Positions 1 through 5,536 of a stretch of 64,000 nt of DNA are shown here, piece after piece. The notes under the pieces were generated by a model that ran no database searches, had not been told where the DNA came from, and saw only the letters and a program-made list of their open reading frames with translations. Every line of letters begins with the position of its first letter. The first letter of the stretch is position 1. The position numbers were made by a program, and so were the translations under genes. The stretch lies in the IMG/VR virus record IMGVR_UViG_3300011008_002712, one strand, 5' to 3'. The stretch comes from a virus. Taxonomy: Duplodnaviria > Caudoviricetes.

Positions 1-155
1 TCATCATTATCATTGAATGACGCAACGATTATATCAACATCTTCTTTTTCTGTTTTATTTTCTTGAACATACTTAACAATTTCAGCTGCTAAATCTTTAT
101 TTAATTTTTCACTGTTGCTTTTAACTGCAATATTTTCTATTCTAATGGTTCTCAT
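1..155 (-). CDS. Small ORF directly downstream of nrdD (runs off window edge); candidate separate glycyl-radical-domain subunit of class III RNR
   Basis: Not in the ORF track. AGGAGG RBS overlaps the nrdD stop, ATG at 155, open to position 1: MRTIRIENIAVKSNSEKLNKDLAAEIVKYVQENKTEKEDVDIIVASFNDND. Function inferred from position and from the truncated NrdD. Confidence 0.6.
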   Translation of the reverse strand, partial: MRTIRIENIAVKSNSEKLNKDLAAEIVKYVQENKTEKEDVDIIVASFNDND

Positions 156-167
156 TTTAGTTCCTCC

Positions 168-2432
168 TTAACAATGACAATGCATTTTTATATGTTCTTT
201 TTCAATATGGTCTTTTTGTCCACATTTTGGACATTCATTGTCAATAATACCAACATATCCGCAATTGGTGCAAGTATCATTAGCATGATTAATAGCAAAA
301 TATGTACAATCATAATCATGCATAGCTCGTACTATTTTTTCGAAAGCTGGCAGGTTTTTAGTTGGATCCCCATCCATTTCAATATATGCTATAGCACCAG
401 CATTACATAATTCATGATATGGAGCTTCTATTTTTATTTTATCAATTGCACGAATTGGATAATAAACTGGCACGTGACTAGAATTTGTCATATATTCTCT
501 ATCAGTTACGCCTTTTATTTTACCATAATGATTTTGATTAGAACGATTCAATGTACCAGCAGTTGATTCAGCTGGCGTAGCAAAAAGTGACCAATTCAAA
601 TGAGTCTGTTCTGTATATTTATCTGTCATTTTTCTCATATGACCGATAATTTCAAGACCAAGTTTTTGAGCTTCTTCACTTTCACCATGATGTTTTCCGA
701 TTAATGCAACTAAAGCTTCTGCTAATCCGCAAAAACCAATTGAAATAGAAGCATGTTTGAGAACTTCTCTTACTGTATCATATTTGTCTAATTTTTCACT
801 GTCCATCCAAATATGCTGACCAATTAAAAATGGATAATTATATGCATGGCGTTTTCCAATTAAATTATACCGCCAAGTAAGTTGTTGCTTAGCCAAATCC
901 ATATATTTGTCGAGAAGTTTATAAAATTCTTTGATATCTTTTTTAGACTCAATAGCCATTTTAGGTAAATTCAATGTTGTAAAAGAAAAATTACCTCTGC
1001 TCGTGACAATTTGTGGCCCATTTACATTGCCTATCACGCGCGTTCTGCATCCCATTGCAGCGATTTCTGTACGAGGATCTCCAGGTACATAATACTTCAA
1101 ATTATATGGTGCATCTATATTAACAAAATTTGGGAAAAGACGTTTGGCTGAAACTCTTATTGCAAGTTTAAACAAATCATAATTTATATCATCTTCATTA
1201 TAATTAATTCCAGATTTCAATTTGAATACTGTTATTGGAAAAATTGGAGTTTCTCCATTGCCTAATCCTTTTTCAACAGAAAGCAAAAGTTTTTCAATTA
1301 CTAATCTGCCTTCTGGTGTCGTGTCTGTGCCAAAATTAAGAGAACTAAAAGGTACTTGGGCGCCAGCTCTTGAATGCAACGTATTAAAATTGTGCACAAC
1401 TGCTTCCATTGCCTGATATGTCTCATTTTCAGTTTCTCTGCACGCAAATTCGTATATAACTGGAAATGCATCTAAAATCAATTCAGCATTTTCATTAAAA
1501 ATTTCTTTTAGTTGTTTTTCTATAGAAATTTTAGTCTTATTTAATGTCTTATAATCTCTTTTATTTTCTTTTGTTTCTCCATAATAGAAATTGTTAAAAT
1601 CAATTTGTTTTAATGTTTTCAGTATCTTTTTTGCACTTGATAAATTAATCCATTCAATTCCTATTTTATAAACTGCTGCTATCCATATTTGATGGATGAT
1701 TGATTTTTTAAAAGTCTTTTTGACTCCTTCAGCCATTGCATAATCAAAACAAGCTATGCTTTGACCACCATATTGTTCATTTTGATTTGCTTGTATTGCG
1801 ATGCACGCAAGAGCAGCATAAGAACGTATTGATTGTGGCTCTCTAATTTTTCCATTTCCTGTCGAAAAACCTTTATGAAACAACTTGAGCAAATCTATTT
1901 GAATGCAGTTCCAAGCTAAATTAGAGAAGTCTTTGTCATGGATGTGGATCCATCCTTCTTTCATGGCTTCTACAAATTCTTTTGGCATGATATAATTATC
2001 AATAAAATATTTACTAGCTTCTGTCCCATATTTTAACATTGAGCCAGCCATAGAATTTGTATTTATATTTGCATTGTCTCTTCTGCTTTCCATTTCATCC
2101 GCAGATTTAAATGTCAAATCTACGAATTCTGTCATTAGTTTTTCTGCATCGTTCCTTCTTTTCTTATGTTCAGAACGATATATAATGTACGATTTTGCAG
2201 TATTTATATACTGAGATTTCATTAAGATGTTTTCCGTTGCTTCTGAAATTTTATCAACAGATGGAACTTTTACATCTTTAAAATAATTTTCTATTTCTTT
2301 AACGACGTCGCTAATTTGAGCAATATTCATTCTTTTATCTTTGCTATTTCTATTTGCATGTTTTATAGCATTAAAAATTTTTGAATCGTCGTAATCAACA
2401 ATTTTGCCGTCTCTTTTTTTGACTTTAAACAA
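168..2432 (-). CDS. nrdD: Anaerobic (class III) ribonucleoside-triphosphate reductase with ATP-cone; lacks the C-terminal glycyl-radical loop
   Basis: N-terminal VKKRDG ATP-cone, IHIHDKDF, NC-QID, HSRAGAQVPFSSLNFG, MGCRT, ATPAES, TNSSHVPV, and CxxC-CxxC Zn ribbon. No R-x-x-GY motif. Confidence 0.95.
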   Translation of the reverse strand: MFKVKKRDGKIVDYDDSKIFNAIKHANRNSKDKRMNIAQISDVVKEIENYFKDVKVPSVDKISEATENILMKSQYINTAKSYIIYRSEHKKRRNDAEKLMTEFVDLTFKSADEMESRRDNANINTNSMAGSMLKYGTEASKYFIDNYIMPKEFVEAMKEGWIHIHDKDFSNLAWNCIQIDLLKLFHKGFSTGNGKIREPQSIRSYAALACIAIQANQNEQYGGQSIACFDYAMAEGVKKTFKKSIIHQIWIAAVYKIGIEWINLSSAKKILKTLKQIDFNNFYYGETKENKRDYKTLNKTKISIEKQLKEIFNENAELILDAFPVIYEFACRETENETYQAMEAVVHNFNTLHSRAGAQVPFSSLNFGTDTTPEGRLVIEKLLLSVEKGLGNGETPIFPITVFKLKSGINYNEDDINYDLFKLAIRVSAKRLFPNFVNIDAPYNLKYYVPGDPRTEIAAMGCRTRVIGNVNGPQIVTSRGNFSFTTLNLPKMAIESKKDIKEFYKLLDKYMDLAKQQLTWRYNLIGKRHAYNYPFLIGQHIWMDSEKLDKYDTVREVLKHASISIGFCGLAEALVALIGKHHGESEEAQKLGLEIIGHMRKMTDKYTEQTHLNWSLFATPAESTAGTLNRSNQNHYGKIKGVTDREYMTNSSHVPVYYPIRAIDKIKIEAPYHELCNAGAIAYIEMDGDPTKNLPAFEKIVRAMHDYDCTYFAINHANDTCTNCGYVGIIDNECPKCGQKDHIEKEHIKMHCHC

Positions 2433-2698
2433 ATATATTGCACTTCCTTTCTTAGTATCGTTACCGAAACTAATTCTATTTTAGTCAAAAAAATCATCGA
2501 TGATTTTTATTTTTGTTTGTTTTGTAATAAATAAATACTGTTTGTTTTGCTGAAAAAAACAGTCTGCATAGAGCAGACTGAATTGAAAACCACAATGTGT
2601 GTATTTAATTACATAAACGCCATGTTGTTGAAAATTCATTTTTATTTATTTTTAATTTGACAAAAAAAGATTAAAATAAATAAAGGAGGGTGAACAAT

Positions 2699-3208
2699 TT
2701 GACGGCAAAATTAATTAACATTTATGGTGCACCGGGATCTGGCAAATCAACGACAGCTGCTGGATTATTTTATGAAATGAAGAAAAAACATTATAAAGTA
2801 GAACTCGCATATGAATGGATAAAATTAAAAGTATATGAAGGAACTCCATATCCATTTATCGATCAGATTTACACGTTTGGAAAACAAAACAAACAAATTA
2901 ATCAATTAAAGAATGCAGTTGATTACATCATTACTGATTCACCGTTATTGTTATCTTTATACTATGGGAAAAACGAAACAGAAGAATTTAAAGCATTAGT
3001 GAGAAAAAGTTATTTCAATTACGATAATTATGATTTTATTGTTGAAAGAAATCATCCTTATTCAGAATATGGACGCAATCAAAATGAGCAAGAGAGCGAT
3101 GATATTCAAAAAGAAATTATAAAAACGTTAAGAGATACTGGAGTAAAATACAATTTAATAAAAAGCACGGATGCTGTCAACGATATTCTAAAAATTATGA
3201 ACCTATAG
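2699..3208 (+). CDS. P-loop kinase/ATPase (NadR/Ttd14 AAA_28-like)
   Basis: Walker A GAPGSGKST, IITDSPLL, GRNQ. AGGAGG RBS before TTG at 2699. Confidence 0.8.
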   Translation: MTAKLINIYGAPGSGKSTTAAGLFYEMKKKHYKVELAYEWIKLKVYEGTPYPFIDQIYTFGKQNKQINQLKNAVDYIITDSPLLLSLYYGKNETEEFKALVRKSYFNYDNYDFIVERNHPYSEYGRNQNEQESDDIQKEIIKTLRDTGVKYNLIKSTDAVNDILKIMNL

Positions 3209-3829: not shown

Positions 3830-4107
3830 ACAAAATAGATTGGCAAGAATTATCTATTGAGAAATCTTCTATACTTAATATTAGAGAAGCAAGATATATT
3901 CAATCGGAAGACAATTATGGCTATCCTTTTATGTTATGTATGGGGAAAGATAAATTTGGTCAGATGAAATTGTTTTTGATTGAATGTATAAATAACGACT
4001 ATAAAGTATATTTATGCAAAGATGAAGAAGAATGCGATAATACAGCTTTTAAGATAATTGTATATCTTATCAATAATGGAAAAGTAATTGACTTTTTAAA
4101 ACAATAA
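3826..4107 (+). CDS. Hypothetical protein
   Basis: ATGA overlap with previous ORF; followed by a terminator. Confidence 0.65.
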   Translation: MNKIDWQELSIEKSSILNIREARYIQSEDNYGYPFMLCMGKDKFGQMKLFLIECINNDYKVYLCKDEEECDNTAFKIIVYLINNGKVIDFLKQ

Positions 4108-5152: not shown

Positions 5153-5536
5153 TTATTCTTGTTTTTCAAAGAAGTTATCACTTAATATTGATTTAAGATA
5201 ATTATCATCTTTAAAGTAACTGAGTTCTTGGTTTAATGATTTACTAAATTCAGAAATATTTTGAGCATCTTCATTTGTTGGCAGTAACACAACTTGCTGA
5301 AGCTTCTGATATAGTTTTGGATGCTGATTATATAAATTATTGAAATCTTCATATAATCTCATATATGTTTCTACAAGATTATCAGCTGATTCTTTTATTT
5401 CTAAAAGTTTTGCTCTTGCAGATTTAAATTCTTCTTCATCTACATCATTATTGAAAATGATTTCTTCATCATTTGCTATTTTCTTCAGTCTCTTTTTCCG
5501 CGATGATTTTATCAAGTTCTTGTTGATTGACCTCAT
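5153..5536 (-). CDS. Hypothetical protein with RLKKIA motif
   Basis: 127-aa ORF with GAAGGA RBS; basic leader followed by an acidic helical body. Confidence 0.7.
   Translation of the reverse strand: MRSINKNLIKSSRKKRLKKIANDEEIIFNNDVDEEEFKSARAKLLEIKESADNLVETYMRLYEDFNNLYNQHPKLYQKLQQVVLLPTNEDAQNISEFSKSLNQELSYFKDDNYLKSILSDNFFEKQE

Follow-up and report, generated by a model that had tools for sequence, protein, structure and literature searches.

A separately encoded glycyl-radical protein very likely completes a truncated class III ribonucleotide reductase in a huge phage

Introduction

Class III ribonucleotide reductase (RNR) works without oxygen, and many strict anaerobes have no other RNR. To our knowledge, all descriptions of it are of a single polypeptide with the glycyl radical on that same chain, as in the one-piece NrdD proteins of Prevotella copri (8P23) and phage T4 (1H79), which are covered by the models NF005497 and PF13597. 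In these one-piece proteins, the CPxCG of the zinc site is followed by just 3-10 residues and then by ERLRRITGY. Small, free-standing proteins that consist only of a glycyl-radical loop are known as cofactors of pyruvate formate-lyase (PFL), namely GrcA/YfiD of E. coli and the phage-borne Y06I of T4, and a 2026 review lists such spare parts for formate lyases only (PMC13450708). The essential catalytic subunit of RNR has also been found in pieces that are presumed to reassemble, both in NrdJa/NrdJb of Pseudomonas aeruginosa and in phage RNRs split by introns, inteins, or homing endonucleases, and nrdD is the most frequently split RNR gene in phages (PMC3653736). The Jug gut jumbo phages, which like the phage studied here are huge gut phages, also carry nrdD in pieces (PMC12880540); their authors reported no RNA splicing between a 230-aa fragment and the final 91-aa fragment and gave the last fragment no functional reading. 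In the literature that we searched, there was no paper describing a split or trans NrdD or a detachable radical part for class III RNR, and no functional description of NrdD-type stand-alone radical pieces.

Here, we analyzed a 64,000-nucleotide stretch (the window) of a 416-kb phage record in which RNR is encoded as two genes, one for a 754-residue NrdD body and one for a separate 97-residue protein with the radical glycine, designated P0001. Aligned end to end, the pair shares with one-piece NrdD the ATP-cone, the barrel, the MGCR motif, the CxxC...CxxC zinc site, and the C-terminal RRITGYL...W-N...ERDRVKH. However, the phage enzyme is interrupted within the glycyl radical domain, after the zinc site and before the Gly loop. 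About 75 additional residues surround the break; the body contributes a 14-aa tail, and the small protein contributes a folded domain of about 60 aa. Like GrcA/YfiD, P0001 is small and free-standing, but its sequence is of the NrdD type, with NRDD-type matches only and no match to Gly_radical PF01228 (the PFL C-terminus), and its N-terminus is predicted to be folded, whereas that of YfiD is reported to be disordered. In contrast to NrdJa/NrdJb and the splits caused by introns, inteins, or homing endonucleases, only 12 nt separate the phage pieces, and the cut parts the radical cofactor from the active-site barrel. The break between the 230-aa and 91-aa fragments of the Jug phages resembles this terminal split, but the Jug phages conserve an activase gene, and this phage record has none. 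We consider it very likely that the pair is a genuine two-subunit class III RNR; its gene structure, the division of the NrdD profile between the two ORFs, the conservation of the split in three relative frames, and purifying selection are shown below, and binding, activation, and catalysis are inferred.

The large subunit lacks only the glycyl-radical loop

The gene for the large subunit (168..2432, minus strand; 754 aa; identified from the ORF list, its translation, Pfam, and NCBIfam) starts with TTG and its protein ends in ...CTNCGYVGIIDNECPKCGQKDHIEKEHIKMHCHC, followed by TAA. The Pfam NRDD model matches the body over profile positions 1-534 of 562 (E 5e-175), and NCBIfam NF005497 matches over positions 3-711 of 746 with 930 bits against a cut-off of 764. 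What is missing is just the final ~30 profile positions, which contain RxxGY, so the loop is not found on the same polypeptide as the barrel and the protein stops directly after the zinc ribbon. The rest of the enzyme is present, with an ATP-cone, a 10-stranded barrel, a finger loop, and the zinc ribbon, and the nearest solved structure is the P. copri NrdD 8p23. The allosteric ATP-cone covers residues 3-91 (2160..2426, minus strand; Pfam PF03477, E 1e-15). The finger-loop motif MGCR, located by its position in the sequence, lies at residues 460-463 (1044..1055, minus strand); it is the single-cysteine, formate-type motif (PMC9669993), and its Cys462 is the presumed thiyl-radical cysteine, which is an inference. 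The zinc ribbon CTNC...CPKC, read from the sequence, spans residues 721-737 (222..272, minus strand) and has a four-cysteine site with CTNC at 721 and CPKC at 734.

Comparison of this phage (L001) with two relatives (L002 and L114) defined a C-terminal tail, DHIEKEHIKMHCHC, at residues 741-754 (171..212, minus strand), which is absent from one-piece NrdDs and is kept in the phage relatives as DH[IV]xxxH[IVL]x[MF]xCxC. We also considered whether this tail is a decayed ERLRRIT motif, but the likeness of HIEKEHIKM to IERLRRIT is too weak, unlike the clear remnants found in two bacterial operons described below.

No second NRDD locus is present in the phage record, which is estimated to be 99% complete, and a search of it for class I/II RNR found none. 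The truncated nrdD is thus the sole NrdD of this phage.

A coupled small gene supplies the missing part of the profile

The junction (156..170, minus strand) consists of the TAA and a 12-nt spacer; the DNA 3' of the NrdD stop reads TAAGGAGGAACTAAAATG, with a Shine-Dalgarno-like GGAGG ahead of the small-ORF ATG at 155. The first 51 codons of the small ORF lie at 1..155 (minus strand) and the remainder past position 1 of the window (L001 3846-4139), so that P0001 was completed from the flank in the parent record. It has 97 aa, with RRITGYL at residues 69-75, the radical glycine at Gly73, and also Tyr74 and Arg81. The original prediction, made from sequence alone, held on most of these points: NrdD ends after the zinc ribbon without RxxGY, and an unannotated ORF with an AGGAGG-type ribosome-binding site begins 12 nt past the stop and runs off the window as a standalone radical domain of roughly 90-100 aa with RITGYL. 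It failed in placing the motif at the protein end, as 22 residues come after it, and in expecting nrdG to follow; it did not mention that the two ORFs share one reading frame with a single TAA between them.

The two proteins partition the NrdD profile exactly. Residues 62-96 of P0001 match NF005497 positions 709-743 of 746, continuing from the body's 3-711, and Pfam NRDD positions 531-562 of 562; this C-terminal part aligns with the final ~35 positions of the one-piece enzyme. In the alignment to 8p23 it covers chain positions 703-739, and Tyr712 and Arg719 of the P. copri enzyme, which have been described previously (PMC11226230), align to Tyr74 and Arg81. Residues 1-59 form a predicted beta-beta-alpha-beta-beta domain, for which a Foldseek search of the PDB returned nothing at E <= 0.001. 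A likeness to tRNA-splicing endonuclease subunits was among the best Foldseek matches, at E ~0.1 and TM ~0.27, and was rejected as not meaningful.

A terminator-like hairpin of the preceding unit lies upstream of nrdD (2560..2580, minus strand), and a second lies 3' of the small ORF, outside the window (L001 4147-4166); no such site was found between the two genes in the pattern scan, which gave 9 terminator-like sites where 1.4 were expected. Because the hairpins bracket the pair, nrdD and the small ORF look like a single two-gene operon, but these are consensus matches only. The next ORF is homing-endonuclease-like with a NUMOD3 motif; it lies downstream of the small ORF and not between the nrdD pieces. 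At the gathering score, no Rfam family matched L001 or L002, and there was therefore no match to a group I intron model in either. An intron, intein, or homing-endonuclease gene between the pieces was ruled out by this result and the spacer of only 12 nt.

The split is conserved in related phages

One objection is that the split is an assembly or sequencing artefact, a recent nonsense mutation, or a TAA that is read through, giving either one polypeptide of ~856 aa or a dead gene. In its favor, the ORFs are in frame with a lone TAA between them. However, nrdD is split in three related phage contigs at 64-69% identity. For two of these the junction could be read, and the spacers of 12, 13, and 14 nt in L001, L002, and L114 give frame offsets of 0, +1, and +2; the third relative (the contig of P0003) is available as gene calls only, without DNA, and its junction was not read. 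Since two related phage loci carry the split in the other two frames, read-through or sequencing error is unlikely, and the frameshift that the original prediction had allowed as an alternative failed. The L002 junction contains an additional in-frame stop, and each small ORF examined starts at an ATG of its own behind a separate GGAGG. Purifying selection acts on the small ORF, for which dN is 0.34 and dS 2.6 against the L002 counterpart (dN/dS ~0.13); for the N-terminal 61 codons alone, dN is 0.42 and dS 1.7. Furthermore, no NrdD body fused to a P0001-type N-terminal domain was found among the longer proteins or the top 150 representatives. By eye, the small number of longer matches do not resemble NrdD (e.g., P0268); this judgment was made without family-model scans of the N-termini. 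We therefore regard the artefact or read-through explanation as very unlikely, but low-level read-through fusion cannot be excluded in this genome because both ORFs are in frame.

Complex model and proposed mechanism

The original prediction suggested co-folding NrdD with the small ORF. The complex model of the NrdD body and P0001 scored 0.72 (0.72, 0.75, and 0.68 in separate runs), compared with 0.00 for the best of 3 controls. Of 80 solved complexes, 58 reached this score mark, as did 2 of 110 mismatched pairs; these benchmark counts apply only roughly to the present model, because our own alignment was used for it. The pLDDT of the partner was at least 81, and at least 91% of the contacts were common to the runs. 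In the model, residues 64-76 of P0001 contact body residues 461-463, with Gly73 beside the Cys462 loop, but the score of the glycyl-loop part may reflect one-piece NrdD structures that the predictor had learned. Expected errors are lowest (0.9-1.6 A) where the body tail (743-752) pairs with residues 53-59 of P0001, a beta strand of its new domain.

We propose a division of labour in which the ATP-cone, zinc ribbon, and Cys462-bearing catalytic barrel would come from the 754-aa protein, and the co-transcribed 97-aa protein would add the C-terminal helix and the glycyl-radical loop with Gly73, Tyr74, and Arg81. The beta-beta-alpha-beta-beta domain of P0001 may dock on the extra C-terminal tail of the body by beta-strand pairing, a radical-SAM activase would put the radical on Gly73, and the Gly73 loop would then enter the barrel beside Cys462, as in one-piece NrdD. 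The limit of this claim is that there is no experiment on the binding of the two proteins or on enzyme activity.

Profile searches of the 416-kb record with TIGR02491, PF13353, and PF04055 found no nrdG, either 3' of the small ORF or elsewhere, and tblastn with two NrdGs, including that of a relative, gave no match below E=1. Three phage radical-SAM ORFs were considered as candidates, but they do not resemble NrdG and look to be of HxsC-like, B12-binding, and SPASM types. Because the record lacks an activase, the enzyme is probably activated by the host NrdG, and activation therefore relies on an unverified host enzyme.

The absence of nrdG could also support another explanation, in which the small protein acts on the host as a decoy or regulator, soaking up host NrdG or plugging host NrdD to redirect or stop host dNTP synthesis, and the truncated NrdD has another role. 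The solitary copies in prophages, which occupy moron-like positions, also fit this explanation. However, the body exceeds the NrdD equivalog cut-off and retains the MGCR loop, zinc ribbon, and ATP-cone, the tight coupling of the two genes is conserved, the complex model joins a phage-specific tail to the phage small protein, and one related phage (G006) encodes its own NrdG (165 bits). We thus consider a decoy or regulator very unlikely.

If the two-subunit reading is correct, a huge phage relies on a split enzyme as its sole RNR and apparently on a host activase. A natural radical on a separate, cheaply replaceable 11-kDa protein would change the view of the activation of class III RNR, because NrdG would act on the free small protein, as well as of oxygen damage and repair and the allosteric control of the radical domain. 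A two-piece enzyme would also be a handy experimental system, since the radical part could be labelled, mutated, and swapped independently of the body.

A wider family of NrdD-type radical pieces

P0001 belongs to a family of at least 143 small clusters at 50% identity; the profile search gave 2,703 matches in total, which may include one-piece NrdDs matched on the C-terminus only. The search of annotated phage records returned just 11 faecal fragments without annotation, all of them matching in the Gly-loop part alone. Operons of the form nrdD body, small gene, nrdG were found in bacteria (L011, L026, L056, and L063), and in two of them the body ends in a decayed motif remnant (...ERILRIRR in L026 and ...FERIPRII... 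in L056). All four bacterial genomes with a linked split carry a second, one-piece NrdD, and for this reason they leave the sufficiency of the split form unproven. The sole NrdD found in one Saccharibacteria genome is a truncated one, and the small gene lies 210 kb away; class I/II RNR was not found there.

Most family members are solitary genes in prophages and in bacteria with full-length NrdD. A solitary copy together with a full-length NrdD of near-identical C-terminus was found in four bacterial genomes (R. flavefaciens ATCC 19208, Amedibacillus dolichus DSM 3991, Merdibacter, and one Saccharibacteria). Because these hosts keep the full-length enzyme, the solitary members are candidates for GrcA-like spare parts, and they make it testable whether spare parts exist beyond PFL, a question raised previously (PMC8683613). 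This suggests an additional reading, in which the small protein is mainly a replaceable part, and the enzyme would have become split because, after oxygen cleavage at the radical glycine, only the 97-aa piece would need to be remade and re-activated. It is supported by these genomes, by the R. flavefaciens copy, which lies between the gene for a cNMP-binding-domain (possibly Crp/Fnr-type) regulator and a rubrerythrin gene, by the solitary metagenome contexts, which in all six cases examined are temperate-phage lysis or integrase modules without a nearby nrdD, and by the same role of GrcA/YfiD for PFL (PMC8683613). Against it, neither oxygen damage nor subunit exchange has been documented for any NrdD-type piece, and we lean slightly away from it. 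The spare-part reading does not contradict the two-subunit reading and is compatible with it, adding a selective rationale.

In the phage itself, the two-subunit reading comes first. Unlike GrcA/YfiD, P0001 is not a spare but the sole provider of the radical glycine, and since there is no full-length NrdD in the phage to repair, it is first an obligate subunit. The analogy to GrcA/YfiD in the original prediction thus held only in part and suits the solitary relatives better, as these, like GrcA/YfiD, coexist with an intact target enzyme. A bolder hypothesis, which in our view is slightly less likely than not when taken as a whole, is that the 97-aa protein represents a so far undescribed and very large group of NrdD-type "radical cartridges" made of a beta-beta-alpha-beta-beta docking domain and a Gly loop. 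Members in bacteria and prophages that retain full-length NrdD would be GrcA-like spares for oxygen-cleaved class III RNR, and several lineages, including this jumbo phage, would have lost the resident loop and become dependent on obligate two-subunit enzymes. The same hypothesis, at the same odds, holds that the radical part could be swapped without remaking the 754-aa body. If true, spare parts would for the first time extend beyond the formate lyases, and phages would be spreading them. The original prediction had also pointed to short NrdD-labelled proteins from Clostridia and Negativicutes, and this held: at NCBI, a 92-aa protein of Ruminococcus and a 225-aa protein of Mitsuokella both carry the name "anaerobic ribonucleoside-triphosphate reductase".

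Division of nrdD into a body and a small glycyl-radical gene

The window corresponds to positions 127998-191997, minus strand, of a virus record of 416,024 bp (IMG/VR provirus class; 99% completeness by CheckV estimate; G+C 29.7%), a size that makes the virus a jumbo phage. Its nrdD body lies at 168..2432 on the minus strand and encodes 754 aa, with an ATP-cone at residues 3-91, a single-cysteine finger-loop motif (MGCR) at 460-463, and a zinc ribbon (CTNC...CPKC) at 721-737. The protein matched positions 1-534 of 562 in the Pfam profile NRDD (E 5e-175) and positions 3-711 of 746 in the NCBIfam equivalog NF005497 (930 bits, cut-off 764), and its C-terminus, ...QKDHIEKEHIKMHCHC, is followed by a stop 17 residues past the zinc ribbon. 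Class III RNR requires an RxxGY loop. The original prediction that NrdD lacks this loop held, as the body stops at NF005497 position 711 of 746; in all other respects, the body is ordinary.

The TAA stop is followed by a 12-base spacer, GGAGGAACTAAA, and an ATG at window position 155. The ORF starting there leaves the window at position 1, and its remainder was read from the flank in the parent record (locus L001). The product, P0001, has 97 aa and contains ERLRRITGYL with Gly73, so the prediction of a small downstream ORF with RxxGY was also borne out (RRITGYL). Its residues 62-96 matched positions 709-743 of 746 in NF005497 and 531-562 of 562 in NRDD, and aligned without gaps with the C-terminus of Prevotella copri NrdD (8p23), whose described Gly711, Tyr712, and Arg719 (PMC11226230) correspond to Gly73, Tyr74, and Arg81 of the small protein. 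Because the two ORFs cover these profiles in a complementary manner, the NrdD profile is split exactly between them, and the cut falls within the glycyl radical domain, with the zinc site on one side and the Gly loop on the other. One-piece NrdDs have just 3-10 residues at this point (pattern CPxCGsxxIERLRRITGYL), whereas the split phage enzyme has about 75 additional residues around the break, namely a 14-aa body tail and about 60 N-terminal residues of the small protein.

Evidence that the split is genuine

Both ORFs share one frame with a single TAA between them, which made it necessary to rule out read-through of the stop and a nonsense error. The terminal split recurs in three related phage contigs. 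In L002, an IMG/VR contig of 504 kb with 69-77% NrdD identity, the body ends in ...HVKMPCIC and a stop, followed by a 13-nt spacer with a second in-frame stop and a 98-aa ORF; in L114, the spacer is 14 nt and the small ORF 102 aa; the contig of P0003, for which only gene calls and no DNA sequence were available, has a 13-nt gap. The three readable junctions (L001, L002, and L114) have spacers of 12, 13, and 14 nt, so all three relative frames are occupied, and each small ORF is preceded by GGAGG and has an ATG of its own. HNH-endonuclease ORFs interrupt nrdD of the relatives at shifting positions, while the terminal split stays put. Comparison of L001 with L002 shows purifying selection on the small ORF (dN 0.34, dS 2.6), also in its N-terminal 61 codons alone (dN 0.42, dS 1.7), and as dS is saturated, dN/dS is approximate. 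The conserved split, its fixed position, and purifying selection exclude read-through and a nonsense error as explanations of the split, though some low-level read-through fusion in this genome remains possible. Terminator-like hairpins, by consensus match only, flank the two genes, lying upstream of nrdD and immediately behind the small ORF, and the same pattern scan found none between the body and the small ORF.

The HNH interruptions of the nrdD body were seen within 1030-4563 in L002, where the body is cut between residues 213 and 214, and within 380-3986 in L114. No Rfam group I intron reached the gathering score in L001 or L002.

Predicted association of the two proteins

The complex was modeled from NrdD residues 100-754 and the small protein as a 34-row alignment. 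It scored 0.72 (runs 0.72, 0.75, and 0.68) versus 0.00 for the best of three controls, with a partner pLDDT of at least 81 and at least 91% contact agreement between runs. Of 80 solved complexes, 58 attained this mark, as did 2 of 110 mismatched pairs; these counts are only a rough guide here because we supplied our own alignment. In the model, small-protein residues 64-76, the Gly73 loop, are predicted to contact the MGCR loop (461-463) and other barrel segments; these contacts may reflect memory of one-piece NrdD structures, and are thus evidence of likeness, not of binding. The lowest expected error (0.9-1.6 A) was obtained for tail residues 743-752, predicted to run antiparallel to residues 53-59 of the small protein, and we found no sequence relative in the PDB for the body tail or for the small protein's N-terminal domain. 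Folded alone, the small protein has a beta-beta-alpha-beta-beta domain at residues 1-59 (pLDDT about 80), without a significant PDB fold match, and a poorly defined Gly-loop region.

The body tail (window 171-212, minus strand) is conserved across the three phages examined, with the pattern DH[IV]xxxH[IVL]x[MF]xCxC, which includes two His residues and a CxC at its end. These residues might form a second small metal site, and no conserved Cys or His partner for the tail was seen on the small protein. Taken together, the findings point most strongly to an obligate two-subunit class III RNR. Supply of the radical loop in trans, as the original prediction had proposed, is supported and highly probable; the loop would be held by a tail-to-strand docking interface whose geometry is predicted only.

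Distribution and gene contexts of the small protein

A word-based search returned 87 small relatives, many matching over the full length (about 93 aa, about 40% identity; alignment A1). With a profile, 2,703 clusters were found among 1.84 billion representatives at E <= 1e-3, 1,692 of them also at E <= 1e-10; these totals may include one-piece NrdDs matched just at the C-terminus. Among the best 150 matches, 143 are at most 150 aa and aligned nearly end to end. The small protein is therefore not a phage oddity. NCBI names such proteins 'anaerobic ribonucleoside-triphosphate reductase', for example a 92-aa Ruminococcus protein (at least 1,000 contigs) and a 225-aa Mitsuokella protein. The cassette of docking domain and Gly loop also ends longer proteins of 225-562 aa (P0268, P0176, P0210, P0297, and P0274), and, judged by eye, their N-terminal parts do not resemble NrdD; one of these proteins has a phosphoribosyltransferase-like motif.

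Three kinds of gene context were found. In the first, the small gene is linked to a truncated nrdD, usually with nrdG next (L011, L026, L056, and L063), and the L026 and L056 bodies end in decayed motif remnants (...ERILRIRR and ...FERIPRII..., each before a stop). In L053, from a Clostridiales MAG, an in-frame TGA at 3911-3913 divides the NrdD body from the Gly-loop piece and is followed by a GTG-started 58-aa ORF; this arrangement is compatible with read-through, recoding, or a plain split, and no nrdG match was seen there. As a caveat, all four bacterial genomes with linked splits also retain a one-piece NrdD. In the second, solitary copies lie in temperate-phage lysis or integrase modules (six of the six metagenome contexts examined). 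The third is solitary and chromosomal, in R. flavefaciens ATCC 19208, A. dolichus DSM 3991, Merdibacter sp., and one Saccharibacteria genome, where a full-length NrdD is also present, its C-terminus nearly identical to that of the solitary protein; the R. flavefaciens gene is flanked by genes for a cNMP-binding-domain regulator, possibly of Crp/Fnr type, and rubrerythrin.

In another Saccharibacteria genome, the sole NrdD found is truncated (...PFEKVSSNAKGK and a stop), with its small gene at a distance of 210 kb. A class I/II RNR was not detected there, an argument for a split enzyme being able to serve as a genome's only RNR, with the reservation that genome completeness is unknown. Many Saccharibacteria genomes (L036-L086) carry a solitary variant of about 145 aa, with a different N-terminus (helical by eye) and a 56-aa tail past the motif, which is paired with a full-length NrdD in one genome and with a truncated one in another.

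Relation to known systems

Like GrcA/YfiD, the small protein is a free-standing glycyl-radical loop. Unlike them, it is of the NrdD sequence type without a PF01228 match, it is predicted to have a folded N-terminal domain, and it is the phage's sole source of the radical glycine. Class III RNR and the spare-part concept are each already known. A 2026 review lists identified spare parts only in formate lyases among glycyl radical enzymes (PMC13450708), and Andorfer et al. merely speculated on spare parts for further enzymes (PMC8683613). The RNR evolution papers and phage RNR survey mention split RNR genes and not a trans glycyl loop; a figure legend on the Jug jumbo phages records 230-aa and 91-aa nrdD fragments not joined by splicing, without interpretation (PMC12880540). 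In the literature searched, the combination of NrdD with a spare part, the docking domain, and the family size were not described.

The only RNR of the phage, its activation, and its neighborhood

Since the body and small ORF form the sole NRDD locus of the phage record and searches for a class I/II RNR came back empty, the phage has no RNR other than the split enzyme. Neither a profile search nor tblastn with a relative's NrdG detected an NrdG in the record, and none of the three radical-SAM ORFs encoded elsewhere resembles NrdG. The 504-kb relative encodes NrdG (165 bits) distant from its nrdD. We infer that the phage would use the host activase; the strong conservation of the RRITGYL context would be compatible with such use. 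The radical-SAM trio lies outside the window at about 296.5 kb, 357.5 kb, and 376.4 kb of the phage record (G000:C1), and the proteins are of 276 aa (weak HxsC-like match), 449 aa (B12-binding type), and 380 aa (SPASM type).

The expectation of an nrdG after the small ORF failed: a homing-endonuclease-like ORF with a NUMOD3 motif (phrog_314) is there instead, at L001 4081-5343 on the nrdD strand, followed by the start of a second ORF at 5372-5500 on the same strand, both GIY-YIG-like by eye. Both lie beyond window position 1, neither is between the nrdD pieces, and both are absent from the equivalent spot in L002. Divergent from nrdD, a 172-aa P-loop ORF (GAPGSGKST) occupies window 2690-3208 on the plus strand, possibly encoding a kinase for nucleotides or deoxynucleotides that partners the RNR. 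This ORF is kept beside nrdD in L002 (168 aa), and L114 has an AAA_28-domain gene there.
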